Origin: Gemmatimonadaceae bacterium
Lineage (GTDB): Bacteria > Gemmatimonadota > Gemmatimonadetes > Gemmatimonadales > Gemmatimonadaceae
Assembly: GCA_036507855.1 (NCBI GenBank)
Contig: DATCIJ010000073.1
Span: 4,433-68,432 of the forward strand
Direction: 5' to 3'
Length of the DNA stretch: 64,000 nucleotides
The position numbers were made by a program, and so were the translations under genes. The notes under the pieces are model-generated. The model searched no databases and was not told where the DNA came from. It saw only the letters and a list, made by a program, of their open reading frames with translations. Position 1 is the first letter of the stretch. Each line of letters opens with the position of its first letter. Shown here in pieces: positions 367 to 61,515 of the stretch.

Positions 367-2208
367 TCACGACGTCAACCGTACCCGACCCGTCTCACGA
401 CGTTCCGTAACCCGCTTCCGGTCACAGTATTCGAGGAACGGAATGAGGTATTTGCGTGACAGACCGAGCACCTCCCGAAGCTCCGATGGGCTGTACTCGC
501 GACTTTCCGTCATTCCGTCCCGGAGTCGCGTGACCAGCCGATCGACCACTTCTACTGCATAAAACCTGCCCGGCTCCACTCCGACAATCAGGTTTTCCCG
601 TTCAAGTATGCGGAGAATGGGGACTGGGTCTCGGTGATGCAGGTCCGTGAGGGTAGCCACATCCGGGGGTTCCGTGCCACCGGCGCGAATGTCGGACAGG
701 AGTCGCGTCCGGTACTCCGCATCCCGTTCGCCGATCATCGCCCGCCAACCAGGAGTGGCCAGGACGGCGCCCCGCCGTTCGACCCGTCCGGCGGCCGCGA
801 GGTCCGCGACGGCGCGCTCCACCAGCTCCACCGCGAACGGCAGGACATCCGGCAGCCCCGCGATCGACTGACCGTCGCCTAACGGATCCAGGCGATGCCC
901 TTCCTTCACGAGCCCCTCGATCGCCTCGCGCGCCGCCGCAACTACCGCTGGATGATAGATCCTCGAGCCGATGCCAACCGCCACCTCCGTCCGGCCGAGC
1001 AGGTCGCGCAACGCACCAGGGGGAATCCCGGACCGTGCGGCGAGCAGCGACTGCTCCACCCCGTCGCCCGAGGCTTCCTGAAGAATCCTGCCTAACGTCT
1101 CCTCGTGTCGCTCGAGCCGGCTCCATGCGGACGGGCGCCGGCGTGGTGGCAGCGGGTCGACCACGACACCGCCCCCGATCGTAGCGGGCGGTGACGCGCG
1201 TCTCAACACGAACCGGTCACCGGCGCGCGCGGGCACCGGCTCCTGCAGCACGACGCGGGCCGCGCGCAAGTCCCCCGGTTGGAGCCCGCCTCCCCCAGCG
1301 ACGATGCGGGCGCCGACGTCGGCCGTGCCCAGGTGCAGGCGCACCCACTCCCGGGGGCCGAGCCCATGCGGCGCATCACTGAGCAGTGAGACTTCGGCGC
1401 GCATCAACGTCGTCAGAGGCCAGGCCACGTCCGCGCAGAGCCAGGCGCCGCGCGAAACGCCGCCGACCTCCACGCCCGTGACCGCGACCGCCGCGCGAGT
1501 CCCGGGTTGCGCCCGCGGGACGTCGACGCCGTGCGCCTGAACGCCGCGCACGCGAACGGTCTTGCCCGAGGGCTGGACGACCAGTGCGTCTCCCGTGGCG
1601 ACGCCGCCTTCCCACACCGTTCCCGTGACGACGGTGCCCGTTCCCCGCACCGAGAACGCCCGGTCGATGGGCATCCTGAACGCATCGCTGGCGTCGCGCG
1701 CGGGAATCGATGCCACCGCCGCACCTAACGCGGCACGCACCGCGTCGAGGCCGGCGCCCGTTGCCGCCGAGGTCCGCACCACGGGCGCGCCTTCCAGCGG
1801 CGTCCCCTGCACCGCCTCGGTAACGTCGGCTGTCACCAGGGCAAGCCAATCGTCATCCACCAGGTCGCACTTGGTGAGCGCGACCACTCCGGCGCGCGTG
1901 CCCAGTATCGAGAGAATCGAGAGATGCTCCCTCGTCTGCGGCATGACGCCCTCGTCGGCGGCAACCACGAGCAAGGCGACGTCGATCCCGCTGGCCCCTG
2001 CCACCATCGTGCGTACGAATGCCTCGTGCCCCGGCACGTCAACGATGCCCACCGTTCCAATGCCATCGAGCTCCAGCGGCGCGAATCCGAGTTCGATCGT
2101 GATCCCGCGACGCTTCTCCTCGGGCAACCGGTCGGTGTCCACGCCGGTGAGGGCGCGAACGAGCGACGTCTTGCCGTGATCGATGTGCCCTGCGGTCCCG
2201 ATGATCAT
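367..2208 (-). CDS. selB: selenocysteine-specific translation elongation factor SelB
   Basis: GTPase motifs GHIDHGKT, DVPGHE, TKCD, followed by long winged-helix-type C-terminal extension. ATG at 2208 (MIIGTAGH) overlaps the recO stop as ATGA. The ORF-track start at 2235 is probably an N-terminal over-extension. Confidence 0.9.
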   Translation of the reverse strand: MIIGTAGHIDHGKTSLVRALTGVDTDRLPEEKRRGITIELGFAPLELDGIGTVGIVDVPGHEAFVRTMVAGASGIDVALLVVAADEGVMPQTREHLSILSILGTRAGVVALTKCDLVDDDWLALVTADVTEAVQGTPLEGAPVVRTSAATGAGLDAVRAALGAAVASIPARDASDAFRMPIDRAFSVRGTGTVVTGTVWEGGVATGDALVVQPSGKTVRVRGVQAHGVDVPRAQPGTRAAVAVTGVEVGGVSRGAWLCADVAWPLTTLMRAEVSLLSDAPHGLGPREWVRLHLGTADVGARIVAGGGGLQPGDLRAARVVLQEPVPARAGDRFVLRRASPPATIGGGVVVDPLPPRRRPSAWSRLERHEETLGRILQEASGDGVEQSLLAARSGIPPGALRDLLGRTEVAVGIGSRIYHPAVVAAAREAIEGLVKEGHRLDPLGDGQSIAGLPDVLPFAVELVERAVADLAAAGRVERRGAVLATPGWRAMIGERDAEYRTRLLSDIRAGGTEPPDVATLTDLHHRDPVPILRILERENLIVGVEPGRFYAVEVVDRLVTRLRDGMTESREYSPSELREVLGLSRKYLIPFLEYCDRKRVTERRETGRVRLTS

Positions 2209-2966
2209 GCCGGCCGGCGAAGGCGGGCCTCCCATCCGTCGAGCGCGCGGAGCGCGCGGCCGTCTCCCATGTGGTGGTGCAGGAACTCGCGAAGCAGCCG
2301 GAGATGGGCGCGTCTCGCCAGGTCGCTCAGCGGCGGCACCTCCTCATCCTCCAGCCACGCTGACATCGCAGTTCGCGCGTCGGCGGGCAGTTCGCGACCG
2401 ACCGACACGCTACGGACACACTGCCCGCACACCACGCCGCCGCCGTGGTGGCTGAAGGGTGCCGCCCGATCCGGCGGCAGCTCTGCGGAACATGAGCAGC
2501 ATCGATTCATCGTCGGGCCAAAGCCCAGCGCCGCCACGTAGCGCCATGCGCCGGCCAGACCATGATCAGTCGCGGAACCTGCCGCTGACCCGGCAATCTC
2601 ATCGAGCGAGCGACCAAGGACATCGAACGCGTCGTCGTGCGGGTCCGCGTGCGCGAAGCGGAGCGCCAGTTCCGCCAGCGCCGAGGCGCCGGCAAAGCGA
2701 TCCAGGTCGGCGGCCAGGGCCATGCGACTTCGCGTCAGGTCGAAGCCCGAGAGGTTGGACAGCTCCCGGCCAGGCTTCAGCGTGAATTGCGCCACACCGC
2801 TGGCGAAAAGATCGAGCGAAGGACCGAAGCGGCTGCGGGGGCGACGCGCGCCGCGCGCGAGCACGGACTGCACGCCATGTTCCCGGGTCGCCAGTCGCAC
2901 GATGCGCGACGACTCGAGGTAGTCCTGCACGTGCAGGACCATGGCGTCGGTCGATACGAAGGTCAT
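2205..2966 (-). CDS. recO: DNA repair protein RecO
   Basis: MTFVSTDAMVLHVQDYLESSRIVRL OB-fold N-terminus and a C-terminal Cys cluster (CCSC...CGQC) typical of RecO. ATG confirmed at 2966. Confidence 0.85.
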   Translation of the reverse strand: MTFVSTDAMVLHVQDYLESSRIVRLATREHGVQSVLARGARRPRSRFGPSLDLFASGVAQFTLKPGRELSNLSGFDLTRSRMALAADLDRFAGASALAELALRFAHADPHDDAFDVLGRSLDEIAGSAAGSATDHGLAGAWRYVAALGFGPTMNRCCSCSAELPPDRAAPFSHHGGGVVCGQCVRSVSVGRELPADARTAMSAWLEDEEVPPLSDLARRAHLRLLREFLHHHMGDGRALRALDGWEARLRRPA

Positions 2967-2982
2967 CAGTTCGCGATTCTGC

Positions 2983-4929: not shown

Positions 4930-4965
4930 GAGGCTACGGGATGTGGGATGTCGGATGGCGGGTGA

Positions 4966-5763: not shown

Positions 5764-6731
5764 CGCATCCTCCGCAACAGGGAGAGGAAGAACGGCACGC
5801 CAACCACCGCGGTCACGGCGCCTAACGGCAACTCGGCCGGGGCTCGCGCGGTGCGCGCGGCGAGATCGGCGCCCACGACCAGCGTGCTCCCGGCAAGCGC
5901 TGACACGGCGAGCGCAACGCGGTGACGGGACCCCACGAGTGCGCGGGCCAGATGCGGCACCAGCAGGCCGACAAAACCCACCAACCCCGCGGCAGCTACG
6001 GTGGCGGCGGCGAGCAGTGAGGCCGTGAGGTACAGCCGACGGCTCGCGGTTTCCGGCGCGACGCCGAGGGCCGCCGCGGCGTCGTGACCCAGCGCGAGGG
6101 CATCGAGGTCACGCGCCCAGTGCAGCAGGAGCGGTCCCGTCAGCGCGAGAACCACGGCCAGGCGCAGGACATCGCGCCATTGCGCAGACCCCAATGAACC
6201 CATCATCCACCAGAGCGCACCGCGCGTTGCCTCCGCGGGGGCGGTGGCCAGTAGCACCATGATCGCCGCGTTCGCAAAGGCGCCCACGACCACGCCGGCC
6301 ATGAGCAGCATCCGCGGATCGGCGCGCAACCCGCTGGCGCGGGCAATGCCCATCACCAGCAACACGGCCGACAGCGCGCCGACGAAGGCGGCGAGCGACA
6401 GGACCGTGGGCTCATTCCAGCCAATCGACACCGCCAGCACGGCGCCGACAGCCGCGCCGCCGGAGACCCCCAGCAGATACGGCTCGGCCAGCGGATTCCG
6501 CAGTGCGCCCTGGAGCACGGCGCCACTCATGCCTAACGCCGCCCCGACCAGCAGGGCCAGCGCCACCCGTGGGGCCCTGACGTCGAGCACGATGGCGCGA
6601 GCGACCGGATCCGCCCCGCCCGCGAGCACGCGCCACAGCTCACCCGGATGGAGCGCCACCGGGCCCAGGGCCAGCGCCGCGATCGATACCGCGATGAGGG
6701 TCGCGATCAGCAGGGCCAATCGACCGCTCAT
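5760..6731 (-). CDS. btuC: FecCD/BtuC-family ABC permease
   Basis: Polytopic membrane protein with GAVTAVVGVPFFLSLLRR C-terminus. ATG at 6731 (MSGRLALLIATL) overlaps the btuF stop (ATGA). The 109-codon upstream part of the track ORF overlaps btuF and is rejected. Confidence 0.85.
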   Translation of the reverse strand: MSGRLALLIATLIAVSIAALALGPVALHPGELWRVLAGGADPVARAIVLDVRAPRVALALLVGAALGMSGAVLQGALRNPLAEPYLLGVSGGAAVGAVLAVSIGWNEPTVLSLAAFVGALSAVLLVMGIARASGLRADPRMLLMAGVVVGAFANAAIMVLLATAPAEATRGALWWMMGSLGSAQWRDVLRLAVVLALTGPLLLHWARDLDALALGHDAAAALGVAPETASRRLYLTASLLAAATVAAAGLVGFVGLLVPHLARALVGSRHRVALAVSALAGSTLVVGADLAARTARAPAELPLGAVTAVVGVPFFLSLLRRMR

Positions 6732-7633: not shown

Positions 7634-7689
7634 GGACTTTCACCCAGTGATGGGAGAACGCCCGTGCGCGGAGCGAACCTGACGGCCCG

Positions 7690-7880: not shown

Positions 7881-7897
7881 GAATTGTGGGGCTGAAG

Positions 7898-9115
7898 CTA
7901 TGTCGGCGATTCCCGTTCTTCAACCGCCTGCGAGTCGACCAGCTGGCCCATGAGCGCGGCACGACGCGCGCGATACTGCTCACCAGCCGCACCCGCCCGT
8001 TTCCCGGGTTCGGCGTAGACGTGGTCGAGCGCGGCGATCTCGCGCGCCAATGCCTCGGTCGCAGGGCGCTCCGTGACCGACGGCGTGGAGAAGCCGGGGA
8101 CGTGACGGCGACCGAGGACGATGCCTAACGCGACAGCAATCGCCGCGACCGCAAGCAGGGCCAGCCGGCTGGCGCGCCCCCCGAGCCCGCCGCCGCTGCC
8201 GCCGACCGTGAACGACGTACCGGCCGCGACGGGTCCAGCGGTGAACCGCTGGAATGAACGCCCCTCCATGCTGACCGGTTCCTGCGGCGCCAGTCCCGCG
8301 CCGGAAACGGAGGCTCCGGCACCCTCCAGCAGCACCTCGAGCGTCGCCAGCCCATCCGCCACAGGAACGGCGACCGAGCTGCCGGCAGGAATGGCGTAAG
8401 TAAGGACGACTTGTCGGGCGCCCGGTGGGAACGGGACCAGGAGTTCCGCGCGGCCGGCCTGAAATCGAAATGCGTCCGGCGGGAGGTCACCGCCGCTCGA
8501 CCCGGGCTCCCGGGCGCCTTCAGGCAAGGCCACGCGCCAGGTACCGCCGTCCGCGCCACCGACGAGCGTCCGGTTGGAATCATTCGCGACCTCGAACACG
8601 TCCACCACGCGCCGAAGTCCGCCGGCATCGGCGGGCGCGATCACCACGTGGCGTGCGCGCACGGTCAGTGGAAACTCCACCGACGTCGTGTCGTAGACCG
8701 CGACGTCCCCGTCAGGGCTGGTCACCGCGGGCTCACGCAGCGGCGCCGTGAAGTACGCCACTCCCGAGTGGCGCGCGGAGACGATGTACATCGATCTCGG
8801 CCCCTCCAGCCGGTAGCGGAATCGATAGGCGCCCGTCGCCGACGTTGTAACCGAATCGACCGGTCCCGACGAATCAGCCGAAATCCGATGGAGGACCACG
8901 ACCTGTCCGCTCACCGGGCGGAGCGAGTCCGTGCTGCCGCGCAGCACGCGTCCGGCAACGGTTCGAATTTCGCCGGCCGTTCCGGGTGTCCCGGTGGCCG
9001 GCGGGAGCGCTCCCTGTGCTGATGCCGGTGCTGGTGACAGGAGACCAGGAAGCATGCACGCGATGAAAGTCGCGCAGCGTCCCGTTGCGCTCTGCGCTTT
9101 GCGCGTTGCGCTCAA
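7898..9115 (-). CDS. hypothetical secreted/membrane-anchored protein (carboxypeptidase-regulatory-like N-domain, C-terminal TM helix)
   Basis: Signal peptide ending ASAQG. VAGRVLRG...GQVVVLHR...TGAYRFRY resembles a CarboxypepD_reg-like fold. TM segment LALLAVAAIAVALGIVLG is followed by a roughly 80-aa charged tail. TTG start overlaps the upstream stop (TTGA). Confidence 0.5.
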   Translation of the reverse strand: MSATRKAQSATGRCATFIACMLPGLLSPAPASAQGALPPATGTPGTAGEIRTVAGRVLRGSTDSLRPVSGQVVVLHRISADSSGPVDSVTTSATGAYRFRYRLEGPRSMYIVSARHSGVAYFTAPLREPAVTSPDGDVAVYDTTSVEFPLTVRARHVVIAPADAGGLRRVVDVFEVANDSNRTLVGGADGGTWRVALPEGAREPGSSGGDLPPDAFRFQAGRAELLVPFPPGARQVVLTYAIPAGSSVAVPVADGLATLEVLLEGAGASVSGAGLAPQEPVSMEGRSFQRFTAGPVAAGTSFTVGGSGGGLGGRASRLALLAVAAIAVALGIVLGRRHVPGFSTPSVTERPATEALAREIAALDHVYAEPGKRAGAAGEQYRARRAALMGQLVDSQAVEERESPT

Positions 9116-9630: not shown

Positions 9631-9659
9631 CGCACTCACCGCCGTGAACGACTTGTGAA

Positions 9660-10939: not shown

Positions 10940-12703
10940 CTACGCCGCGCCCTCGCCAGCGAGTGCGCCATTGCCCATTGCCGCCACGAGTCGGAAGCGT
11001 AGTTCGCGCTCCGCGTCAGGCGCCGTTCGTGACGCCAGGGCCGCGCTCGCGGCTTCGATCGCCAGGGCGGTGCTGATGCCACGCACCAATCGCTTGGTGG
11101 TCGACACCGCGCGCGGGTTCACGCTCAATTCGCGCACGCCGAGGCCAATGAGGGCAAAGGCCATGAGTGGTTGCGACGCCATTTCGCCGCAGACCGCGAC
11201 GTCGATGCCCTGCGCGTCCGCGACATCCACGATTCGGCGGATCAGCCGCAGGATGGCTGGATGCAGTGGGGTGAACCGCTGGGCAAGGTTCACGTTGCCT
11301 CGATCGACCGCGAGCGTGTACTGCACCAGGTCGTTGGTGCCGATGCTGAAGAACGCGACGTCTCCGGCAAAGGTGTCGGCGGCGACTGCCGCCCCCGGTG
11401 TTTCCATCATCACGCCCAGGGGAACCTGCCTGCGGAACGGTACGCCCGCCGCCGTCAGCTCCGCAGCGGCCTCATCGAGCAGTTGACGGGCCGCCCGGAC
11501 TTCGTCGACCGAAACGATGAGCGGAAGCATGATGCGCACGTCGCCGTGCATCGCGGCTCTCAGGAGCGCGCGCAACTGGACCTTGAACAGCTCCGGCGAG
11601 TCGAGGCACATCCGGATGGCGCGCCAGCCAAGAAACGGATTGGGCTCGGTCGGATATCCGCCGATTGGCAGCTTGTCGCCGCCGATGTCGAAGGTGCGAA
11701 CGATGACCGGTCGTCCCTCGAACGCCTCGACGACGCGCCGGTAGGCGCGGTACTGCTCCTCTTCATCGGGCATGGTCGCGCGGCCCACCACCAGGAACTC
11801 GGTGCGCATGAGCCCGACGCCGTCGGCGCCGCTGCGCGCCGCGGTTTCGGCCTCCTCGGGCAGGTCGACGTTGGCGCGAAGCGTGATGTGGACACCGTCC
11901 GTCGTGACCGCCTCCACGTCGGTGAGCAGCGCCAGCTCGGCGTCGCTCAGCGCCTGCGCGACGGCCCGCGACCGGAAGGCGTCGAGCTCGTTGGGGCTCG
12001 GGTCGATCACCAGCAGGCCGCTCGAGGCATCGAGCACGGCCGGCTCGCCGCCGCGCAGGCGGCTGGTGGCGTCGCGGAGGCCCACGACCGCCGGAATGCC
12101 TAACGATCTGGCCAGGATCGCGACGTGTGACGTTCGCGTCCCGGAATCCGTGGCGATGCCGGCGATGGCTTCGCGGTCGAGCTGTATCGTCAGGCTGGGC
12201 GTCAGGTCATGCGTGACCAGGATGGCGTTCGTTCCCTTCGGCACGTCGACCGGATCGTGATCCGGCAGCTGCATCAGCATCGACAGGACGCGAATGTGGA
12301 CGTCCGTCAGGTCGCCGACCCGCTCGCGCAGCATCGGCGCCGCGCTGCGCGCGAACTTCTGGCGCCATTCGAGCATCACCACGTCGAACGCCTTCTCGGC
12401 GTCCAGGTTCTGCCTGATGTACGACTCGACTTCGTTGAGCAGTGCCTCGTCCGAGAGCATGCCGATCTGCACCTCGAAGATCCCGGCCTCGTCCGATCCG
12501 GCGTGCTGCTCAGCGCGCTCGCGCACCTGTTGCACCCGGTCGGTGGCGCCCTTTACGGCGGTGCGGAACCGGGCGATCTCCGCGTCGATCTGGTCGTCGT
12601 CGATGATCCGGTGTGGAACCTCCGGCACCTCCCAGCGCAGGAGGCGCACCGGACCAACCACGATCCCGGGTGACGCCGAGATACCGTGAAAGACCCTGTT
12701 CAC
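10940..12703 (-). CDS. ptsI: phosphoenolpyruvate-protein phosphotransferase (PTS Enzyme I)
   Basis: GTRTSHVAILARSLGIPAVVG active-site His region and PEP-utilising C-terminal domain (MMETPGA, FFSIGTNDL). GTG start overlaps the ptsH stop. Confidence 0.9.
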   Translation of the reverse strand: MNRVFHGISASPGIVVGPVRLLRWEVPEVPHRIIDDDQIDAEIARFRTAVKGATDRVQQVRERAEQHAGSDEAGIFEVQIGMLSDEALLNEVESYIRQNLDAEKAFDVVMLEWRQKFARSAAPMLRERVGDLTDVHIRVLSMLMQLPDHDPVDVPKGTNAILVTHDLTPSLTIQLDREAIAGIATDSGTRTSHVAILARSLGIPAVVGLRDATSRLRGGEPAVLDASSGLLVIDPSPNELDAFRSRAVAQALSDAELALLTDVEAVTTDGVHITLRANVDLPEEAETAARSGADGVGLMRTEFLVVGRATMPDEEEQYRAYRRVVEAFEGRPVIVRTFDIGGDKLPIGGYPTEPNPFLGWRAIRMCLDSPELFKVQLRALLRAAMHGDVRIMLPLIVSVDEVRAARQLLDEAAAELTAAGVPFRRQVPLGVMMETPGAAVAADTFAGDVAFFSIGTNDLVQYTLAVDRGNVNLAQRFTPLHPAILRLIRRIVDVADAQGIDVAVCGEMASQPLMAFALIGLGVRELSVNPRAVSTTKRLVRGISTALAIEAASAALASRTAPDAERELRFRLVAAMGNGALAGEGAA

Positions 12704-12975: not shown

Positions 12976-13745
12976 CGGATCACCGAGTAGAGGACGAACG
13001 CCGTGAGCACGCCGGCGGAGACCTTCCAGCCCTCGGCGCGCCCATGCAGCCGGGTGAGCACGATCGCACCTGCCAGCGCGCCGAGCAGGGTTCCACCGAG
13101 AAGGACGTTACCGGATCCGATGATCCGGTGGACGGCGATGGGAAGCGAGAGTCCGGCCAGGACGGCGGCGACGCGGCCCAGGTGCAGCGGCGCCTTCTGC
13201 AGGATCGGATGCCCTAACGACTGCGCGACGGCGAGTCCCTTGCGCCAGCCGGCCTGAAGGCCCCACACGCGCAGCCCGAGGTGCCCGGCATTGTACAGGC
13301 CGAGGAACGTCAGCACAGTCACCAGGGGTGACGCCCCGGTGCCGAACACGGCCAGCGCCGCGAATGAGCAGAGCGGCAGAAAGGTCGCCCAGACCAATCG
13401 ATCGCCCAGCGCGCCAAGCGGCCCGCACAGCGCCGTGCGAAAGCGCTCGATGCGCTCCGGCGCCTCGCCATCGAGCTCGGCACGCGCCAGCGCGCCGATC
13501 GCGACGCTGGTGAGGTATGGATGCGCGTTGAAGTACTGGCTCTCGCGGGCCAGCGCCGCGTGATACGCGTCGCCATCACGCCCTCCCGGGAGCCGGCGCA
13601 ACGCGGGCTCGACGCAGAAGCCGATCCCGTTCCCGAGCATCGTCTCGTAGTTCCACGCGCCCTGAACGGCCAGCATCCGGAAGAATATGACCACCTGGGT
13701 GCCAAGCGGCAGCGTGGGCGTCGCGCCAACGGGGCCGGCGCTCAT
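12972..13745 (-). CDS. PTS mannose/fructose/sorbose family EIID component
   Basis: AWNYETMLGNGIGFCVEPAL motif typical of EIID-Man. Membrane protein. ATGA overlaps on both sides. Confidence 0.8.
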   Translation of the reverse strand: MSAGPVGATPTLPLGTQVVIFFRMLAVQGAWNYETMLGNGIGFCVEPALRRLPGGRDGDAYHAALARESQYFNAHPYLTSVAIGALARAELDGEAPERIERFRTALCGPLGALGDRLVWATFLPLCSFAALAVFGTGASPLVTVLTFLGLYNAGHLGLRVWGLQAGWRKGLAVAQSLGHPILQKAPLHLGRVAAVLAGLSLPIAVHRIIGSGNVLLGGTLLGALAGAIVLTRLHGRAEGWKVSAGVLTAFVLYSVIR

Positions 13746-14425
13746 GACAGACTCACCAGGCCCAGACCCGCAGCCAGGCCGAGCATGAACTGCCAGCTGA
13801 ACCCGGGCACGGCATGGAACAGCTTGTACGCCGCACCTAACGAGACAGCGCCGGAAGCGCCCACCACCATGGCGCGCGACAGCGGCGCGCCGGTACCCCA
13901 GGCTTCGAGGGCCGCCATCTGGAGCGGCTGCAGCGCCATCAGCCCGATCGCGGTCAGGACGATGCCGCGCACGAGGTCCGCGCCCAGCCCTGCCATCTGC
14001 AATCCGATCACGGTTCGCCGCGCGCCGCCAGCGACCGCGTCATGACGATTGCGGGCCCACATGGCGTTCAGCTTGCGTACCTGCACCATCGACCACCCGC
14101 CGATCCATGCGATGGCCAGCGCGCCCAGCACGGTCGTCGTCAGGCGCCCGGCGTCAAAGCCGCCGGCCTTCGTGAACAGCGCGCCGCCAATCACCGCCGC
14201 GGAACCCCATTCCGGGTACCGGCTCGCGCCGAACGGCAGTGTGTCAACCGCGAAGAGCTCGAGCGCCGCGCCCACGAGCAGCCCGGCTCCCGCATCGCCA
14301 AGGATCGCGCCGGACAGTGTCGCGCCAACGATGGGCCGCGACAGCATGGCCTGGGGAAAGCTCACGGTGTCGAGCCCGAGCACGCCGCCCAGCAGCGACA
14401 GAACGACCACGTCAACGGCGCTCAC
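13742..14425 (-). CDS. PTS mannose family EIIC component
   Basis: Polytopic membrane protein with the N-terminus LLGGVLGLDTVSFPQAMLSRPIVGATLSGAILGD typical of EIIC-Man. GTG start overlaps the EIIB stop. Confidence 0.75.
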   Translation of the reverse strand: MSAVDVVVLSLLGGVLGLDTVSFPQAMLSRPIVGATLSGAILGDAGAGLLVGAALELFAVDTLPFGASRYPEWGSAAVIGGALFTKAGGFDAGRLTTTVLGALAIAWIGGWSMVQVRKLNAMWARNRHDAVAGGARRTVIGLQMAGLGADLVRGIVLTAIGLMALQPLQMAALEAWGTGAPLSRAMVVGASGAVSLGAAYKLFHAVPGFSWQFMLGLAAGLGLVSLS

Positions 14426-21677: not shown

Positions 21678-21680
21678 TGC

Positions 21681-47239: not shown

Positions 47240-49036
47240 TCATCGGAGTCCCAACCTCCGCCGGACGATCCACTCCACGCAAAGAGACACGATCACAATC
47301 GCAAAGATCCAGCCGATCCCGCGCAATCGCGGCGCGTCCGTGAGTGCTTCGCCCGTGCCGATCTCGCCCTCAACCACTGTCGGACGGCGCGGCAACACCT
47401 CGGCTGAGGGATTCACCACCAGGACGGACGACCCTCCCTTCGTCGTGATGTCGTACACTCCGGCCGGCCGCGGAGGCGATTCCGAGAACAGTGATCCGGC
47501 CGGGAAGCTTACCGTAATGGAGTCACTCGTGCCGGTACCGCGCCTGACGAGCGTTACCGGCACGACCGTGTCGGTTGGCAGGCCGCGTCGCCAGCGAATG
47601 GACTGTCCTTCGCGAACGGCGCCGTCGGCCGGGCTGGCTGCACGATTGTCGGCGCGCTCGGCCGCCAGCCAGTCGATGATGCTGCCCCAGAACGCGGAGT
47701 GGGCGGCAGCGGGTGCGCCGCCGCGGAATCGCCACCGCCAGAATCCGGATGCCGGCACGAGCACGGTTCGCTTCGGGCGATCCCATCCCATGGCCGCCAC
47801 GCGACGTTCCAGCCGGCGAGCGCGGCGCGTCTCCAGCACCTCGAAGTTGCCCGTCCCGACCACCGGAGACACTTCAAGGGGTGGCAGACTGTCCCACGCG
47901 GATCCGCCGAGGGCCGTCGCCATGGGAGACGCCGGCGCTCCGGTGGCGTACCATTCCTCCGCCGGCGTTGAGGGCGTCGCGACGAGCAGCAGCGATCCGC
48001 GGGCGAAGGTCCTTGGATCCCCGAACATCGCGGTGTCTCCATGCAGGACCAGAAGCGGCGCCTCGCGAGCCGCGCGCCGCACTTCTTCTTCGGAGATCAT
48101 TCCCAGCGATCCCTCTTCGCGCCAGCGCTCCGGGGCCACACGATAGAATCCCCGCGTCGGCAACAGGACGGTTCCGCGGAGCACCGTTGCGAGGTCGCGA
48201 ACGTCATAGTCGGGCGCGGTCGAAACGACGACTGCCCCGGCGCCAGGCATGACGTCGACCGCCACGGCGAGGGAGTCATTGGCCACGGTCCGGTCCCCCG
48301 GCGCGGTGAGCGCCGCGGCGATGAGAACGGCACCGGTGACGTTAGGCACGGGCAGACGAGTACGAACCACTCGCTCCCCGTAGGGCCCCACCGAGTCGAC
48401 CGACACCGTCGCGAGAACCCGATCGCCCAGGCGGAGTGTCAGGCGTGAGGGGGGACCCCCGCGGACGGAGGCGGTCAGCACCACGTCGACATCGAGCGTG
48501 TCACCGCCGACCGTGGCCCGCACGACGCGCAGCTCGGAGATCGCGACGTCCGCCCCATCCTCCGCTCGCACGACGACGACACCCGAGCCACCCACGAGCG
48601 GCGTCAGCGCCTCGGCGTCCTCCAGTTCCCCATCGGTGTAGATCCGGAGCGGGCGACCTTCCGCCACCGCGCGTTCGACGGCCGGGCGCACTCGCGAGGC
48701 GACATCGGCCGGCGTGCGCGTGCCGCCATCGACACGCGTCGAATCCCCGAAGAGAAGCAGCTCGCCGTCGGCTTCTCCGCGGGCCCGTTTCAGCGCAGTC
48801 TGGAAACGCGTTGAATCACCATCGCGCAACCAGCTCGCCGAAGCGTCCAGCGCCACCAGTGCCGGCGCCGGGCGCGCCGCCCCGAGGGCAGCGTTCAGGA
48901 TGAGCGCCACGAGACCCGTGACCGCAATCAGGCGTAGTGCCGCGGAAACGAGCGTCAGCCCCGAACCCGGTCGGAGTCCGTAGACGATGACGACGGCCGC
49001 TGCGCCGGCGACGAGCGCCGCGATCCAGATCAGCAT
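47240..49036 (-). CDS. hypothetical membrane protein (N-terminal double TM, C-terminal TM anchor)
   Basis: MLIWIAALVAGAAAVVIVYG...LTLVSAALRLIAVTGLVALILNAALG at the N-terminus and GIGWIFAIVIVSLCVEWIVRRR at the C-terminus. No catalytic motif recognised. Topology is reminiscent of BatA-type N-terminal double-TM proteins. Confidence 0.5.
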   Translation of the reverse strand: MLIWIAALVAGAAAVVIVYGLRPGSGLTLVSAALRLIAVTGLVALILNAALGAARPAPALVALDASASWLRDGDSTRFQTALKRARGEADGELLLFGDSTRVDGGTRTPADVASRVRPAVERAVAEGRPLRIYTDGELEDAEALTPLVGGSGVVVVRAEDGADVAISELRVVRATVGGDTLDVDVVLTASVRGGPPSRLTLRLGDRVLATVSVDSVGPYGERVVRTRLPVPNVTGAVLIAAALTAPGDRTVANDSLAVAVDVMPGAGAVVVSTAPDYDVRDLATVLRGTVLLPTRGFYRVAPERWREEGSLGMISEEEVRRAAREAPLLVLHGDTAMFGDPRTFARGSLLLVATPSTPAEEWYATGAPASPMATALGGSAWDSLPPLEVSPVVGTGNFEVLETRRARRLERRVAAMGWDRPKRTVLVPASGFWRWRFRGGAPAAAHSAFWGSIIDWLAAERADNRAASPADGAVREGQSIRWRRGLPTDTVVPVTLVRRGTGTSDSITVSFPAGSLFSESPPRPAGVYDITTKGGSSVLVVNPSAEVLPRRPTVVEGEIGTGEALTDAPRLRGIGWIFAIVIVSLCVEWIVRRRLGLR

Positions 49037-49045
49037 CCGGGAAAA

Positions 49046-50447: not shown

Positions 50448-51649
50448 TCCATCTGTCTCCGAATGAAGGTCGGAATGTCCATGTCGGTCAGCTCCGGCTC
50501 CGGCCGCTGCGGCGGCTGAGAGGGCGGAATAACGCGACGTGGAGCTCCGTCCGCCAGTGGAACCACCGTCCGGGGCACTGCTGCAGCCCGTCCCGGGTTC
50601 CGCTGAGTGATTGGAATCACGTTGCGAGGCACCGTCACCGCTGACTGGGAAGCCACCCGCACGGAACCTCCCGGCAGCCCTACCTCGATTTGACGATCGA
50701 AGCCGGTGGCGATCACGGTAACACGGATCTCACCCTGCATTGCCGGCTCGTTGACGGCACCAAAGATGATTTCCGCGTCATCTCCGACCGCGTCGTGAAC
50801 GATTTCGGAGATCTGCGTGACCTCGCCCAGTGTGAGGTCGGTTCCACCCGTGATGTTAAGCAGGACCCCGGTGGAACCAGCGACGGAAATATTGTCGAGC
50901 AGGGGGCTCGAGATGGCCTGCTGCGCGGCTTCCATGGCCCGGTTTTCTCCACGGCCGATGCCGGTCCCCATCAGCGCCGAGCCGCCGTTCTGCATGACGG
51001 TGCGGACATCGGCGAAATCGACGTTCACGAGGCCGGTGCGCGAAATCAGGGTGGAGATGCCCTGCGTGGCGTGGAGGAGCACCTCGTCAGCCTTCTTGAG
51101 CGCGTCCTGGAAGGGAATGCCCTTTCCAACCACCGCCAGCAATCGCTCGTTAGGTACGACGATCATCGTGTCGACGTGCTGACGCAGGTCGACGATGCCC
51201 TGCTCCGCCTGGCGCATTCGCTTGCGGCCCTCGAACAGGAACGGCTTCGTCACAATGCCGACCGTGAGCGCGCCAGCTTCCTTGCCCAGCTGCGCGATGA
51301 TGGGCGCGGCCCCTGTCCCCGTTCCCCCGCCCATGCCGCAGGTGACGAAGACGAGGTCGGCGCCGGCAAGCGCGCGACCCACTTCCTCACGGTTTTCCTC
51401 GATGGCCTGACGCCCGATTTCAGGTCGCGCTCCGGCGCCGAGTCCTCGCGTGAGCTTCTTCCCGATCTGGATCTTCACGTCCGACTTCGAGGCCAGCAGG
51501 GCCTGTGAGTCCGTGTTGATCGAGATGAACTCCACGCTTTCGAGGCGTTCGTCGATCATGCGGTTGACCGCGTTCCCGCCGCCGCCGCCGACGCCCACGA
51601 CCTTCATGCGAGCGTTCTGGGGTGGGGTCTCTTCGAACTCGAAGATCAT
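50444..51649 (-). CDS. ftsZ: cell division GTPase FtsZ
   Basis: [13 protein letters not shown] and [10 protein letters not shown] tubulin signature. Conserved C-terminal peptide [14 protein letters not shown] 51649. Confidence 0.95.
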
Positions 51650-51885: not shown

Positions 51886-51896
51886 AACAGATGTGT

Positions 51897-53944: not shown

Positions 53945-55320
53945 CGCGGCACACCAAGACGCTGCAACAGCTCGGTGCCGGTGTGCGTGATATCGCCCGC
54001 GCCAAGCGTCAGCACGACGTCACCGTCGCGCGCGGCGGCCGCGATGGCATCGGCGAGTGCTGCTCGCTCTCCAACCCATACCGGCGAATGCCCCGCCCGT
54101 CGCAACGCGTCCGCCACCAGGGCCGACGTGATGCCTGGCAACGGCTGCTCCCGGGCCGGATAGATCTCGGTGAGGAAGACGAGATCCGCGCGTGCCAGGG
54201 CGACGCCAAAGGCATCCGCGAAATCCCGCGTCCGCGTGAACAGATGCGGCTGGAAGGCGGCGATGAGACGCCGGCCAGGAAAGGCAGCGCGTGCCGCATC
54301 CAGCGTCGCGGTGATCTCCGTCGGATGATGCGCGTAGTCGTCCACCACCTGCACGCCGCGCACAGCACCAAGGCGCTGGAACCGGCGCTCGACGCCCTCG
54401 AACCCCTCAAGACCGCCGCGCAGCGACTCCAGCGTCGCTCCCAGTGTGACCCCGACGCCGATGGCTGCCAGCGCATTTCGCACGTTGTGCATTCCGGGAA
54501 CACGCAGCGCGAGCTCACCCAGGTCGGCTCCGTCGAGCCGAACGAGGAATCGCAACCGGCCTTCCACCGAAAGGAGTTCCTGCGCCGAGAGCCGGGCCGC
54601 CCCATTGGCGATGCCGTAGGACAGAAGCTCGGCCCGCGCCGGGATAGCGAGCGTCGATGACCCGGGATCGTCAGCACAGGCCACCACGGTCCGTGCGGGC
54701 GCCAGGAACTGCTCGAAGGCTTTCCTGATGTCGTCAAGGTCCGCGTAGATGTCGAGATGATCTGTTTCGACGTTCGTGATGACCGCGACCGTCGGCGTGA
54801 GAGCGAGGAAGGAGCGATCGTACTCATCAGCCTCCACCACGAACAGGCTGTCGCCGCCGGCGCGAAGATTCCCCTGCCAGGCAGCTACGCGACCACCCGC
54901 CAGTCCCGTCGGCGAGTAGCCGGCCGCCGCCAATGCCTCGGTCGTCATGACCGTCGTCGTGGTCTTGCCGTGCGTACCCGCCACCGCCACGAGCTCGGCG
55001 CCGGCTACCGCCTCGCCTAACGCCTCCGCCCGTCGCACGACCGGAATGCCGAGTTGCCTGGCTCGCATCAATTCCGGGTGATCTTTTGGCACCGCGGAGG
55101 TGACGACGACAGCACGCGCCCTTTCGACGTGGACGGGATCGTGACCGCTCACGACCTCGATCCCATGCCGGCCGAGATCGCCTGCCGCATCGGGAGCCAC
55201 GTCGCAGCCAGTCACCGCCACGCCGCGACGCCGATACAGTTCCGCGAGCGCGCTCATCCCGGCGCCCGCGATCCCCATGAAGTGAACTGGTCGCGAATCT
55301 CCGTCGTGGAGTAGCGTCAC
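53941..55320 (-). CDS. murC: UDP-N-acetylmuramate--L-alanine ligase
   Basis: HFMGIAGAGMSALAE and GTHGKTTTT motifs. GTG start overlaps the murG stop. Confidence 0.95.
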   Translation of the reverse strand: MTLLHDGDSRPVHFMGIAGAGMSALAELYRRRGVAVTGCDVAPDAAGDLGRHGIEVVSGHDPVHVERARAVVVTSAVPKDHPELMRARQLGIPVVRRAEALGEAVAGAELVAVAGTHGKTTTTVMTTEALAAAGYSPTGLAGGRVAAWQGNLRAGGDSLFVVEADEYDRSFLALTPTVAVITNVETDHLDIYADLDDIRKAFEQFLAPARTVVACADDPGSSTLAIPARAELLSYGIANGAARLSAQELLSVEGRLRFLVRLDGADLGELALRVPGMHNVRNALAAIGVGVTLGATLESLRGGLEGFEGVERRFQRLGAVRGVQVVDDYAHHPTEITATLDAARAAFPGRRLIAAFQPHLFTRTRDFADAFGVALARADLVFLTEIYPAREQPLPGITSALVADALRRAGHSPVWVGERAALADAIAAAARDGDVVLTLGAGDITHTGTELLQRLGVPR

Positions 55321-56420
55321 CGCGCCCCTGCCTGCTCGAGGAGGCGCGCCACTCGCCCGGCGATATCCATGGCCGCGCCGGCGCGCGCGCGCGACGCGGC
55401 GCCGGCAGCCAACGCGCGCAGCGACCGATCATCCGCCAGCAACGATCGGATCTCGGTGTCGATCCGATTCGCGGTCGCTTCGGATTCGGGTATGCATCGC
55501 GCCGCGCCGGCTTCGGCCAGCGCCCGGGCGTTGGCCGTTTGATGGTCGGCCGCCGCCGTGGGCAGAGGCACCAGCAACGCCGGGATTCCCCAGGCGCAGA
55601 GTTCTGCGGTGGTCATGGCCCCGGCTCGCGTCAAAGCGATGTCGGCAACGGCGTACGCTTCGGCTATTGGAGACAGGTAATCCCTGACGATTACGCGCTC
55701 CGATGAGTGGTGTGCGTGACGCTGGAAGTGCGACGGCCCTGTCGCCCAGATGATGTGAAGACCATCGGGCAACCCGGCCGCGACCCACTCGTCGACGCGC
55801 GCATTGAGTGCGGCCGAGCCCTGGCTTCCGCCGAAAACAAGGAGCACCCGCGCGCCCACGGGAATTCCCAGCCGTCTCCGGCCTTCCTCACGCGATGGGC
55901 GCGGCTCTGGAGGCGGCTCAACGGGATTGCCCGTGTGCACGGCACGCGACATCGCGCGACCAGGCAGTCGCATCGCCGCTTCCGGAAAGCCCAGGTAGAC
56001 CTCGCGCGCCCAGCGACTGAAGAAGCGGTTGGTCTGGCCAGGAACGCTGTTCTGTTCCTGCAAGACGAATGGAAGGCCTTTCACGACGCACCAGGCCAGC
56101 GTCGCCGAGGAGGCGTACCCGCCGGTGGCGACCGCCAGCGCGGGCACGCGAGCGCCTAACGCGCGACCGATTTCACCCCACGACACGACGAGGCCCCGCA
56201 CGGTCCGCCAGCTGCGCCAGGGCGCAGCGCGATAGAGCGGGTGCAGGTCCAGCAGGATATGCGGAAATCCGGTACCCGGCAGCACGGTCCGCTCGATTCC
56301 CCGCTGCGCGCCGACGAAGAAGGGATCGACATCGGGGCGAAGCCTGACGAGAGCCCGCGCGATGGCCAGCGCTGGATAGAGATGTCCGCCGGTGCCACCG
56401 CCGGAAAAGACCACCAGCAC
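55317..56420 (-). CDS. murG: undecaprenyldiphospho-muramoylpentapeptide beta-N-acetylglucosaminyltransferase
   Basis: GGGTGGHLYPALA motif and C-terminal GAMTTAEL. Confidence 0.95.
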   Translation of the reverse strand: MLVVFSGGGTGGHLYPALAIARALVRLRPDVDPFFVGAQRGIERTVLPGTGFPHILLDLHPLYRAAPWRSWRTVRGLVVSWGEIGRALGARVPALAVATGGYASSATLAWCVVKGLPFVLQEQNSVPGQTNRFFSRWAREVYLGFPEAAMRLPGRAMSRAVHTGNPVEPPPEPRPSREEGRRRLGIPVGARVLLVFGGSQGSAALNARVDEWVAAGLPDGLHIIWATGPSHFQRHAHHSSERVIVRDYLSPIAEAYAVADIALTRAGAMTTAELCAWGIPALLVPLPTAAADHQTANARALAEAGAARCIPESEATANRIDTEIRSLLADDRSLRALAAGAASRARAGAAMDIAGRVARLLEQAGAR

Positions 56421-60105: not shown

Positions 60106-60140
60106 AGATGGGAGATGTGAGATGGGAGATTTGAGATAAG
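60106..60140. repeat. heptanucleotide repeat block (minus strand ATCTCAA ATCTCCC ATCTCAC ATCTCCC ATCT) abutting the mraY start codon
   Basis: Read directly. Shares CTCCCATCTCAC(R)TCTC with the block in front of the PfkB-family gene at 23645. Confidence 0.85.
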
Positions 60141-60153
60141 CTGCTCGATCTGA

Positions 60154-61515
60154 TTACGCTGAGGACCAATCCTGCAGTAGAGGCACGAGACGCTCGAGGC
60201 GCACGCCGCGAGACGCCTTCAGCATAACGATAGCATCGCGTGGAAGCCGGGACGCCAGAGACTGCCAGAGTTCCGGGACATCGGGCGCGGTCAGGACTCG
60301 ATCACGGGCGTCGCTGCGCGCTGACAGGGGCGCGACGAAATCTCCGATTCCGGCAACCAGCACGGCGCCTGACGACAGCGCCCTCCCGGCGATTTCCTCG
60401 TGCAGCGCCGGAGACTGAGGTCCAAGTTCGCGCATCGTGCCGAGCACCAGGACACGAGGCTTGCCGCCGTCGAGCGAGTCGAGCAGGGCGATCGCCTCGC
60501 GCATGGACGCCGGGTTGGCGTTGTAGGCGTCGTTGATGATTGTCAGATCGCCGCTGGTCATCCACCGCCCTCGCATGTCGAGGGGCTCCACCCGCGAGAT
60601 GCCCGCGGCGGCAACGTCGTCAGGAATACCGCAGGCTCTGGCGACAGCCATCGCCAGCATGGCATTCCGCAGATTGTGGGCGCCGGGCACCCGCATCGAG
60701 ATCCGCGTGTCAGCAAACGAGGCCCAGCCGCGCCCGTCGCTGTTCATGCCCCATCGATCGGGATGCACGTCTCCGCCATCGAGACCCGCCTCAATGACTC
60801 GACCAGCCCGGGATCGCGCCGCGCGCCCAATCTCGGGTTGCGCGGTCGGGGCGACACCAAGAGGAACGCGGTCATAGATCGCGGCCTCTTCATTCAGCAC
60901 ACCTTCCAGCGAGCCCAGTCCTTCGAGGTGCTCCTCGCCGATCGACGTCACAACCGACAGGTCGGGTGACACGATGCGACGGAGGAGTCCCACTTCGCCG
61001 GGGATGCTCGTGCCGACTTCCACGACAGCGACCTGCGCGTTCGACGGCAACCGCAACAGGGTCAACGGCACCCCGACCTGGTTGTTCAGGTTTCCCGTCG
61101 TGGCGTAGACGTCGAGGGATCCTGACAACGCCGCCCGGATGAACTCCTTCGTGGTCGTCTTGCCGTTGGAGCCCGCCACGGCCACGACCGTGCCGCCCCA
61201 GACTCCGCGCCACCAGGCGCCTAACGCGCCCAGCGCCCGCGTCGTGTCCCGGACGGCGATGACGGGAACACCAGGGCCAACGGTGCCGGAAGGATCGTCC
61301 ACGACGAGCGCCGAGGCGCCCGCGCTGGCCGCTTGTGCGAGAAAGTCATGTCCGTCGAAACGTTCGCCGCGAAGGGCGACGAAGATGTCGCCCGACGCCA
61401 GTGTCCTGGTGTCGGTAGAGACGTTGCCAAGTACCGAAGTCCCCGCGGGCCTCGCCGACGGCTGCAACTCCGCGCGCAGCGCCTCCCCGAGGCGATCGAG
61501 GGTCCAGGTCATCAT
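60154..61515 (-). CDS. murF: UDP-N-acetylmuramoyl-tripeptide--D-alanyl-D-alanine ligase
   Basis: GSNGKTTT P-loop, Mur ligase middle and C-terminal domains. ATGA overlap with murE. Confidence 0.9.
   Translation of the reverse strand: MMTWTLDRLGEALRAELQPSARPAGTSVLGNVSTDTRTLASGDIFVALRGERFDGHDFLAQAASAGASALVVDDPSGTVGPGVPVIAVRDTTRALGALGAWWRGVWGGTVVAVAGSNGKTTTKEFIRAALSGSLDVYATTGNLNNQVGVPLTLLRLPSNAQVAVVEVGTSIPGEVGLLRRIVSPDLSVVTSIGEEHLEGLGSLEGVLNEEAAIYDRVPLGVAPTAQPEIGRAARSRAGRVIEAGLDGGDVHPDRWGMNSDGRGWASFADTRISMRVPGAHNLRNAMLAMAVARACGIPDDVAAAGISRVEPLDMRGRWMTSGDLTIINDAYNANPASMREAIALLDSLDGGKPRVLVLGTMRELGPQSPALHEEIAGRALSSGAVLVAGIGDFVAPLSARSDARDRVLTAPDVPELWQSLASRLPRDAIVMLKASRGVRLERLVPLLQDWSSA

Follow-up and report, generated by a model that had tools for sequence, protein, structure and literature searches.

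A lineage-specific octamer in soil Gemmatimonadaceae is a possible uptake-type DNA signature word

The uptake signal sequences (USS) of Pasteurellaceae, with their AAGTGCGGT core, and the DNA uptake sequences (DUS) of Neisseriaceae (GCCGTCTGAA) are short non-palindromic words present at about one copy per kb and roughly 100-fold enriched. They occur in both orientations without replication polarity, favor certain frames in coding DNA where they leave a measurable imprint on peptides, are also found in non-coding DNA, and are restricted to lineages, with dialect-like variation and a graded tolerance of single variants. Other over-represented 7- to 8-mers that are scattered through genes and act at the DNA level include Chi (e.g. 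GCTGGTGG) and the KOPS/SRS words (GGGNAGGG, GAGAAGGG), which are G-rich and strongly co-oriented with replication, show a strand skew of 70–90% (Chi and KOPS), and are only a few-fold enriched. The cyanobacterial octamer HIP1 (GCGATCGC) is present in great excess in genes and spacers and is patchy across lineages; this palindrome is methylated by DmtA/DmtC, and its function is still debated but has lately been linked to transformation (bioRxiv 10.64898/2026.06.24.733823).

A word that shares the listed properties of USS and DUS is described here from Gemmatimonadaceae. It departs from these systems in its phylum (Gemmatimonadota), in being an AT-containing word of a high-GC genome, and in its presence or absence within a single family. 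It is 8 bp long and lacks both extended AT flanks and inverted-repeat terminator pairs like those of Neisseria, as its close pairs are mostly direct. It also coincides with an integron core site. Like HIP1, it is an octamer of comparable excess in genes and spacers with a patchy distribution, but it is asymmetric. Unlike Chi, KOPS and SRS, it is without polarity and in roughly 100-fold excess.

The window, which is the entire 64-kb stretch of Gemmatimonadaceae DNA analyzed, carries 24 copies of CGTTAGG (19 on the minus and 5 on the plus strand), of which 18 are the full 8-mer CGTTAGGC. Coordinates, strands and counts all agree exactly with the original prediction. The copies, followed by a weaker C variant, are:

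878–884, minus: CGTTAGGC in selB, CCG-TTA-GGC (Pro-Leu-Gly)
1091–1097, minus: CGTTAGGC in selB, ACG-TTA-GGC
1724–1730, minus: CGTTAGGT in selB, GCG-TTA-GGT
5821–5827, minus: CGTTAGGC in a FecCD-type permease gene, CCG-TTA-GGC
6532–6538, minus: CGTTAGGC in a FecCD-type permease gene, GCG-TTA-GGC
8124–8130, minus: CGTTAGGC in ORF 7898–9115 (no Pfam match), GCG-TTA-GGC
12099–12105, minus: CGTTAGGC in the PTS enzyme I gene, TCG-TTA-GGC
13213–13219, minus: CGTTAGGG in the PTS EIID gene, TCG-TTA-GGG
13836–13842, minus: CGTTAGGT in the PTS EIIC gene, TCG-TTA-GGT
16577–16583, plus: CGTTAGGC between hprK and a glycosyltransferase gene, outside gene models; possibly CTA-ACG within a short ORF on the minus strand
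18839–18845, minus: CGTTAGGC in ribBA, C-GTT-AGG-C (Val-Arg)
20039–20045, minus: CGTTAGGT in the riboflavin synthase gene (ribE), ACG-TTA-GGT
21680–21686, minus: CGTTAGGC, with its TAG serving as the stop codon of purM, 3 nt ahead of the ribD start
22845–22851, minus: CGTTAGGC in a pfkB-family kinase gene, ACG-TTA-GGC
27347–27353, minus: CGTTAGGC in a methylmalonyl-CoA mutase gene, GCG-TTA-GGC
30523–30529, minus: CGTTAGGC in comEC, GCG-TTA-GGC
33285–33291, minus: CGTTAGGC in a MiaB/MtaB-type radical SAM gene, GCG-TTA-GGC
41005–41011, plus: CGTTAGGT antisense in a DinB-family gene, CCT-AAC-G (Pro-Asn)
44587–44593, plus: CGTTAGGC antisense in recG, CCT-AAC-G
48340–48346, plus: CGTTAGGC antisense in ORF 47240–49036, CCT-AAC-G
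51148–51154, plus: CGTTAGGT antisense in ftsZ, CCT-AAC-G
55016–55022, minus: CGTTAGGC in a murC-type ligase gene, GCG-TTA-GGC
56155–56161, minus: CGTTAGGC in murG, GCG-TTA-GGC
61220–61226, minus: CGTTAGGC in a murF-type ligase gene, GCG-TTA-GGC
2733–62923 (range), 37 plus and 23 minus: 60 copies of CGTCAGG, 36 of them CGTCAGGC

Dinucleotide shuffles of the window yield 2.4 ± 1.6 copies of the 7-mer (maximum 9); the zero-order estimate of about 7 copies offered previously was too generous. For the 8-mer, 0.85 copies are expected by chance. When synonymous codons are shuffled inside each gene, a null that retains the inflated TTA count, 1.69 ± 1.23 in-gene copies are expected (maximum 6 in 1000 shuffles) versus the 22 observed. 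The predicted reading frames are borne out (17 NCG-TTA-GGN, one GTT-AGG in ribBA, four antisense CCT-AAC-G and the purM TAG stop). Two subsidiary claims require correction: 24 of 68 TAAC tetramers (35%) rather than nearly half lie inside the word, and the gene models hold seven TTA codons elsewhere, not two, in addition to the 17 of 24 that carry the word. The word is used in 17 of the 46 NCG-Leu-GGN tripeptides of the window, and TTA in none of its 160 other x-Leu-Gly tripeptides. The enrichment extends beyond the window, whose T-variant density is 0.38/kb, as evident by three T-variant and five C-variant copies in the first 5 kb outside its start in the same organism. We found no earlier description of the enriched word.

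The enriched CGTCAGG variant was absent from the original account. Codon shuffles predict 23 copies in the window versus the 60 observed (0.94/kb), and 8 versus 36 for CGTCAGGC. Together, the T and C forms (CGTYAGG) give 84 sites, 42 per strand, or ~1.3/kb. The refined motif is C-G-T-[T>>C>G]-A-[G>>T]-G-[C>T>G], with single variants tolerated in a graded fashion and with lineages differing in their 'dialects'. Gemmatirosa copies are 97% CGTTAGGC; the lineage of the window has a looser eighth base and many C variants.

CGTTAGGC is ~100 times more common in one subset of soil Gemmatimonadaceae than in sister species, in both genes and spacers. Among 80 related species, density is bimodal, with 0.54/kb in 29 species (plus lineages) and 0.005/kb in 49 (minus lineages), and the excess over sister lineages is ~95-fold (258 copies versus 2.7 expected). 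Plus lineages carry 0.4–1.4 copies per kb on chromosome and megaplasmids alike. The cultured species Gemmatirosa kalamazoonensis has 801 copies on a single 1.1-Mb replicon (0.72/kb), and the word is its top outlier 8-mer under a third-order Markov model (685 observed versus 31 expected). To our knowledge, an excess on such a scale is reached only by USS, DUS and HIP1. This pattern of presence and absence among relatives had not been noticed previously.

Comparisons with these relatives also indicate how copies enter genes. Orthologous positions in minus genomes encode Leu-Gly with CTC or CTG rather than TTA, and the same alignment columns gained the word independently in separate clades. The routes are recoding of conserved x-Leu-Gly (CTC/CTG to TTA), Pro-Asn on the opposite strand, and conservative amino-acid replacement. 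In plus proteomes, [SPTA]-Leu-Gly is 31% more common and Pro-Asn-x 62% more common, and 25% and 45% of such peptides, respectively, carry the word. Moreover, the word is 2.7 times denser in non-coding than in coding DNA. The proposal that the target of selection is the DNA word and not the protein is supported by these orthologue comparisons, the codon-aware nulls, and the enrichment of both orientations and of non-coding copies.

The concentration of TTA codons within the word could instead reflect special TTA decoding or a frameshift or pause site, and UUAGGC resembles the Ty1 +1 frameshift heptamer. However, orthologues keep Leu at the TTA positions, and antisense and non-coding copies are enriched as strongly as sense copies. 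Base-calling or polishing error is countered by the recovery of identical sites in 10 independent short-read assemblies (MEGAHIT and JGI) and by the presence of the word in the PacBio-finished genome of a cultured strain (PMC3974934). These observations contradict both the artefact and the translation or mRNA readings, to which we assign a negligible probability.

A polar signal, either Chi for RecBCD/AddAB or KOPS/SRS for FtsK/SpoIIIE, would fit the 19 of 24 T-variant copies on the G-rich, gene-rich strand and a density close to that of Chi in E. coli. However, the bias tracks gene strand rather than replication. The original prediction had warned that gene orientation confounds the 19:5 ratio, and it indeed becomes 42:42 once the C variant is included. 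Within 477 kb of sequence, 145 copies are sense, 86 antisense and 27 non-coding. On the complete 1.1-Mb Gemmatirosa replicon, a megaplasmid with weak GC skew rather than a chromosome, there is no replication polarity: sense preference is ~62% for genes on either strand, non-coding copies divide 146:127 by strand, and the inferred leading:lagging ratio is 423:378. The antisense Pro-Asn class shows the highest realized fraction, and a better Chi-like candidate in the window is GCTGGTGG, with 11 of its 15 copies on the minus strand. A polar signal is therefore very unlikely. The lack of polarity, the enrichment of antisense and non-coding copies and the agreement across assemblies lead us to reject the Chi, KOPS, RNA-level and artefact readings.

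Copy spacing is slightly more regular than random (CV 0.88). The even spread, orientation neutrality, abundance in non-coding DNA and occurrence on all replicons examined might suit binding sites of an abundant sequence-specific nucleoid or chromosome-organizing protein, in which case selection for chromosome structure, and not a drive, would maintain the word. We consider this improbable, as no known nucleoid protein imposes ~5,000 exact 8-mers on a genome or remodels the sequences of proteins. Selection at any single site would be very weak, but 25–45% of permissive peptides carry the word, which is wholly missing from sister lineages of the same biology.

Somewhat less doubtful, but still unlikely, is a HIP1-like target of DNA modification (m5C or a SMRT-invisible mark), with biased short-patch repair converting near-cognate sites. 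Known very-short-patch repair, however, yields only mild word biases. The presence and absence of the word among relatives fits a mobile methyltransferase/repair module, and unshared sites of related species differ at 2 to 4 of 7 positions more often than expected from background divergence (mean 2.56 versus ~1.8). HIP1, which is similarly abundant both within and outside coding sequence and has ties to methyltransferases, offers a precedent (bioRxiv 10.64898/2026.06.24.733823). However, the word is not palindromic, and a conversion sink predicts depletion of one-mismatch neighbors, which is not seen in plus genomes. The SMRT methylome of G. kalamazoonensis KBS708 contains only RGATCY, ATGCAC and CCAGN7TCA as methylated motifs (PMC3974934), and so m6A and m4C are excluded there and only m5C or exotic marks are possible. 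Of the DNA-level analogues listed in the original prediction, Chi/KOPS fails for want of polarity and m6A/m4C methylation on this methylome, and an uptake sequence stands as the best fit.

The word has exactly the sequence of the commonest core, C-GTTAGGC, of integron attC/attI sites (R-box GTTRRRY, inverse core RYYYAAC). This identity was unexpected and formed no part of the original prediction. Gemmatirosa plasmid 1 carries at ~810–856 kb a large array of roughly 35–45 cassettes, adjoined by a genuine integrase of the integron type (TIGR02249, 423 bits). Its attC hairpins (~97 nt) end in GCCTAACG ... CGTTAGG[C/T/G], each attC having exactly this word at either end. In 85 integron loci of other soil bacteria, CGTTAGGC is the top N-GTTARRY word. 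By our estimate, an arbitrary 8-mer would match a common attC core by chance with a probability of ~1e-3. The tolerated variants (GTTATG; C, T or G at the eighth base) are similar in range to the IntI1 binding boxes of attI1.

The word may be an R-box bound genome-wide by an integron-integrase or Xer-type tyrosine recombinase of the plus lineages, whereby thousands of isolated R-boxes would serve a chromosome-wide function or cassette landing and be kept up by recombinase-linked conversion or selection. We regard this as unlikely, though more probable than the HIP1-like reading. Possession of an integron does not by itself suffice for enrichment across the genome, as the motif-minus Gemmatimonadaceae MAG DATANT01 bears an integron with R-box CGTTAGAC and lacks the genome-wide word. 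Integron flanks in other taxa show no enrichment, and intergenic copies show no cassette-like orientation about genes. Unlike attC sites, window copies are solitary words in conserved housekeeping genes, outside hairpins or cassettes and with no L-box or hairpin partner, and thousands of active recombination sites within essential genes would be hazardous. Genomic attG sites, for which enrichment is not reported, need only GWT, and the enriched C variant (GTC) disrupts this GTT/GWT triplet needed for IntI cleavage (bioRxiv 10.1101/2022.09.11.507474).

On balance, we tentatively favor a lineage-specific signature word, read in double-stranded form and maintained by a recombination-coupled drive in the manner of uptake signal sequences. 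The presence of comEC, recO and recG in the window counts for this uptake reading; comEC is probably also present in minus lineages, which would count against it. Identity with the attC core is not predicted by a plain uptake model and may indicate a different reader protein. According to the uptake model, a sequence-specific protein restricted to plus lineages would read the word in either orientation, and the competence machinery would preferentially import conspecific DNA that bears it. Alleles carrying the word could then spread through homologous replacement, a molecular drive in which selection for self-recognition might assist, and loss of the putative receptor in a lineage would result in complete loss of the word.

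A recount of the window recovered all 24 predicted copies of the word CGTTAGG with every coordinate exact, 19 on the minus strand and five on the plus strand, and likewise the 18 copies that extend to the 8-mer CGTTAGGC. For the 7-mer, dinucleotide-preserving shuffles yield 2.4 ± 1.6 copies, and for the 8-mer 0.85. We also shuffled synonymous codons 1000 times within each gene of our own gene models, which are based on codon statistics, a procedure that retains the inflated TTA count. Inside genes, 22 copies are observed versus 1.69 ± 1.23 (largest value 6) in these controls, and the proposed excess therefore withstands a codon-aware null. The reading frames are as had been described: 17 NCG-TTA-GGN, one GTT-AGG, four antisense CCT-AAC-G and the TAG stop of purM (21680). 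Two of the original figures require correction, since 35% of the TAAC tetramers, rather than nearly half, lie in the word, and the gene models contain seven TTA codons outside the word rather than two. Thus 17 of 24 TTA codons fall within the word, and TTA is used in 17 of 46 NCG-Leu-GGN tripeptides versus 0 of 160 other x-Leu-Gly tripeptides. Bases flanking the 8-mer are random, and a search of these flanks for an extended consensus or AT tracts found none.

Independent metagenome assemblies from ENA (MEGAHIT) and JGI include 17 contigs that encode the window's murF-type protein, and the word is present at homologous positions in 10 of 10 assemblies fetched from this set. Because the same sites recur in 10 short-read assemblies, and because the word is also found in a PacBio genome, a base-calling or polishing artefact is rejected. 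Two differences among these assemblies were observed. At the ftsL/PBP junction, one assembly carries CGTTAGG (L006, position 1315) where eight others among L001-L010 carry CGTTAGA, and another (L008, 518-1921) carries a group II intron-type reverse transcriptase (RVT_1 + GIIM) upstream of rsmH that is absent from the other assemblies of this species. The original prediction had hinged in part on enrichment outside the window. Such enrichment exists in the adjoining 5 kb past the window start (read from a different contig of this organism), where there are three CGTTAGG and five CGTCAGG, in relatives, and in plasmid 1, the 1.1-Mb replicon of the cultured strain Gemmatirosa kalamazoonensis KBS708.

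To survey relatives, the window FtsZ was searched against one genome per species, which gave 80 Gemmatimonadaceae species with up to 21 kb each around ftsZ. Word density among them is bimodal: 29 'plus' loci (477 kb) hold 258 copies (0.54/kb), whereas 49 'minus' loci (791 kb) hold four (0.005/kb), most lacking any TTAGG. The word is therefore specific to some lineages. In an FtsZ neighbour-joining tree, the entire clade of the window is plus except for two members with very few T-variant (CGTTAGG) copies, and plus status recurs in a number of distinct subclades and in a single isolated species in the tree's other half. This scatter indicates that the trait was gained or lost several times. A search of a plasmid collection with the PtsI protein returned no Gemmatimonadota match. 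Other odd enriched words in two relatives proved to be plain tandem repeats near ftsZ that are unrelated to the word, one of 8-9 bp units (L079, 8236-9740; GTAGGACC) and one of the 7-bp unit GGGAACT (L051, 14590-14709).

Copies in plus loci comprise 145 sense, 86 antisense and 27 non-coding occurrences. Because antisense copies are far above the level of minus genomes, a function at the level of RNA or translation is excluded and the word acts independently of orientation. With the agreement among assemblies also considered, an explanation by artefact or RNA-level effects is scarcely credible.

How the word enters genes can be seen in query-anchored codon alignments that cover, for the 80 species, 14 genes of the dcw region and its neighbourhood. 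NCG-TTA-GGN occurs 106 times in 40 alignment columns, at which minus genomes mostly encode Leu-Gly with CTC (427) or CTG (204), the remainder being the conservative states Leu-Ala, Ile-Gly, Val-Gly and Phe-Gly. The same column often bears the word in unrelated plus clades, as for the Thr-Leu-Gly of FtsZ, which carries it in six species spread over five parts of the tree. For the word to arise, a conserved dipeptide must therefore have taken two or more substitutions, or an amino acid must have changed, and this has occurred repeatedly. Together with the codon nulls and the excess of antisense and non-coding copies, these alignments uphold the original claim that selection acts on the DNA and not on the protein.

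The word is strong enough to alter protein sequences. Among [SPTA]-Leu-Gly peptides, 25% carry the word in plus genomes versus 0.2% in minus genomes, and for Pro-Asn-[VADEG] the values are 45% versus 2%. The peptides themselves are more frequent in plus than in minus proteomes, by 31% and 62%, respectively. A proteome imprint of comparable kind is described for uptake sequences in an earlier account (PMC2817400).

The original prediction missed a second form, the C variant CGTCAGG (2733-62923), which is present in 60 copies versus 23.2 ± 4.6 under codon shuffles, with 36 copies of its 8-mer CGTCAGGC versus 8.2. At 2.5-4.4 times the codon-aware expectation, CGTCAGG(C) lies mostly on the antisense strand as CTG-ACG, which uses common codons, whereas the T variant is mainly sense (TTA-GG). 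The two combined (CGTYAGG) are divided 42:42 between the strands. The 19:5 strand bias of the T variant is therefore a coding effect, as the warning that gene orientation confounded it had anticipated. In plus genomes, the single variants CGTCAGGC (3-fold) and CGTTATGC (14-fold) are likewise enriched, and the eighth base follows the preference C>T>G, with next to no variation at positions 2, 3, 5 and 7.

Two derivations of one form from the other were considered. Origin of CGTTAGG by m5C deamination of CGTCAGG is rejected because the dominant NCG-TTA-GGN frame would require a change from Ser to Leu, and the orthologues have Leu (CTC/CTG). There is also little support for C variants as decayed T-variant sites, as evident by the fact that a relative has the T variant at just seven of 64 plus-private C columns. 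Two close relatives of the window's species (L014 and L015) have one CGTTAGG each and a raised density of CGTCAGG (0.33-0.39/kb versus a background of 0.155/kb), and may represent a lineage in which the word is being lost or the preference is changing.

The full sequence of plasmid 1 (NZ_CP007129; 1,106,233 bp, 72.7% GC) was scanned to examine the word in a finished replicon. It carries 801 copies of CGTTAGG (416 forward, 385 reverse; 0.72/kb), of which 97% are CGTTAGGC. This is the top outlier of all 8-mers, with 685 copies versus 31 from a third-order Markov model when a duplicated 53-kb segment and an integron are left out. The word occurs at 0.58/kb in coding versus 1.54/kb in non-coding DNA, and its spacing is slightly more regular than random (CV 0.88; largest gap 8.3 kb). 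Like the purM stop, 44 of the 186 TAG stops (5% of called genes) are CGT-TAG-G. Intergenic copies show no preferred, cassette-like orientation relative to neighbouring genes, and a search for inverted-repeat terminator pairs of the word found none, close pairs being direct.

Several other repeats were observed on this replicon: a 12-bp tandem array made from the word itself (GCGTTAGGCGCG, seven units; 1,005,342-1,005,430), smaller direct duplications at 735,994 and 22,094, and, at about 120 sites (e.g. 183,402-183,500), triplets of the 11-bp sequence AGGACTGAAGG. These triplets form inverted pairs beside conserved CTCCACGTACGTGT arms, are absent from the window and look like an intergenic palindromic element.

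The original prediction named Chi and KOPS-type motifs as possible analogues, and such polar signals would be expected to follow the direction of replication. On plasmid 1, about 62% of copies are sense by our own gene calls, whichever strand the gene is on. Non-coding copies are divided 146:127 and leading versus lagging copies 423:378, if origin and terminus are placed by the cumulative GC skew, which is weak. The strong co-orientation with replication that marks Chi sites is thus lacking, as it is for CGTYAGG in the window. KOPS, SRS and architecture-imparting sequences exceed approximately 80% leading-strand skew and switch at ori and dif, whereas 36%-66% of copies are forward in 50-kb bins of plasmid 1. 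The word is therefore unrelated to replication direction and polar signals are rejected as very improbable, with the caveat that this test used a megaplasmid of weak skew. The E. coli Chi word GCTGGTGG has 15 copies in the window (e.g. 819, 6802, 9252) versus three expected, 11 of these on the gene-rich minus strand, and CCACCAG is also enriched in two other loci (L016, L033). GCTGGTGG is codon-compatible (CTG-GTG) and is a more classical Chi-like candidate than the word.

Methylation was another proposed analogue. The published SMRT methylome of KBS708 names three methylated motifs only, RGATCY, ATGCAC and CCAGN7TCA (PMC3974934), so the word is not an m6A or m4C target, the two modifications to which this result applies; it may yet carry m5C. 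A further possibility is a modification-and-repair word like HIP1, which is a palindromic octamer and the target of cognate DNA methyltransferases. CGTTAGGC is not palindromic (its reverse complement is GCCTAACG), and the depletion of one-mismatch neighbours that would be the signature of conversion was looked for and not seen. We consider a HIP1-like origin unlikely.

At ~810-856 kb of plasmid 1, word density is two to three times the usual value and the copies follow a regular pattern. Units of ~400-800 bp begin with ...TCAGCTGCAACGATTCGTTAGGC and finish with the reverse complement of GCAGCTGAACTCCAGCGTTAGGC, the next unit starting ~88 bp on, and the variable bases after the word agree between the start and end of each unit. 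The ~97-nt elements fold as hairpins and have the attC architecture R''(GCCTAACG)-L''-variable-L'-R'(CGTTAGGC). An integrase gene adjoins them:

Plasmid 1, 856,827-857,810, minus strand: integron integrase ORF (TIGR02249, E = 8.5e-127, 423 bits versus a cut-off of 265)

The whole region (~810,000-857,810; L107, L108) is a large sedentary integron with an estimated 35-45 cassettes and very uniform ~97-nt attC sites. The word is thus identical to the integron core site: GTTAGGC, with its preceding C, fits GTTRRRY / RYYYAAC and bounds every attC of the Gemmatirosa array. Moreover, CGTTAGGC is the commonest N-GTTARRY word in 85 integron loci of other soil bacteria (37 occurrences).

This identity raises the possibility that the word is bound by a tyrosine recombinase of the IntI/Xer type. 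However, 723 of the 801 copies on plasmid 1 lie outside the array, where only seven attC-like pairs occur. Copies in the window differ from attC and attI sites in lacking the R''-L''...L'-R' inverted repeat and adjacent intI or cassettes; no hairpin partner was found, flanks are random, the sites are inside conserved housekeeping genes, and no intI was found in the window. An IntI-bearing contig of the same sample (L201/L200), considered as the integron of the window's species, belongs to a genome without the word. A minus Gemmatimonadaceae MAG (DATANT01; L088 and L195) carries an integron whose R-box is CGTTAGAC and lacks the word in its 20 kb. Flanks of other integrons show no enrichment, and in 80 metagenome loci with IntI homologues, mostly short and from other taxa, the word is inside cassette arrays only. 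An integron is therefore not sufficient for the genome-wide word. Furthermore, IntI cleavage needs a GTT/GWT triplet (bioRxiv 10.1101/2022.09.11.507474), which is broken by the C variant that abounds in the window's lineage. A recombinase-binding word seems somewhat unlikely.

We estimate the chance of a coincidental match between word and integron core at ~1e-3. That the word is a self-recognition or uptake signal deliberately matched to the attC core, or is read genome-wide by an IntI/Xer-type recombinase, is decidedly doubtful. If true, acquisition of DNA, and of gene cassettes especially, would be tied to the cassette core in its thousands of copies on the chromosome, and transformation-type molecular drive would be linked to integron biology in a way not known before.

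We infer that the word depends on a sequence-specific DNA-binding protein confined to plus lineages, and that copies probably build up by a process linked to recombination. That the word is the site of a nucleoid protein is distinctly improbable. Biased uptake of the USS/DUS type, in which competent cells would preferentially take up word-bearing DNA and homologous replacement would then spread the word, is the best, if tentative, account. To our knowledge, no other mechanism yields this whole set of features. Like USS and DUS, the word is in very large excess (24 versus 2.4 in the window, 0.54 versus 0.005/kb among loci, 801 in 1.1 Mb), is neutral to replication while its orientation in genes is set by coding constraints, and fits genes through particular frames and peptides that imprint the proteome. 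The presence of comEC, recO and recG in the window lends weak support to the uptake reading, and no candidate pilin or word-specific receptor (ComP-type minor pilin) was found.

Full-text literature searches returned no paper with the word in a relevant context and nothing on uptake, Chi or iterated sequences in Gemmatimonadota, and the KBS708 genome announcement does not mention the word (PMC3974934). We classify it among the hyper-abundant genomic words, where it is unusual for its new phylum, its sharp presence or absence inside one family and its identity with the integron cassette core. We know of only one other word of comparable abundance, HIP1, whose function is still debated, and of sequence-specific uptake signals established experimentally in only two proteobacterial families. 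An uptake signal here would be a third, independent case, in an abundant yet poorly studied soil phylum. The clean contrast of presence and absence between sister species, together with a cultured strain with a finished genome, makes the origin of such words directly testable. The word is also a strong taxonomic and binning marker, and it may help in the design of transforming DNA for Gemmatimonadota. In these genomes it accounts for almost all TTA codons (17 of 24 in the window) and for one in four TAG stops. Unless coincidental, its match to the integron core has implications for the recruitment and exchange of cassettes.
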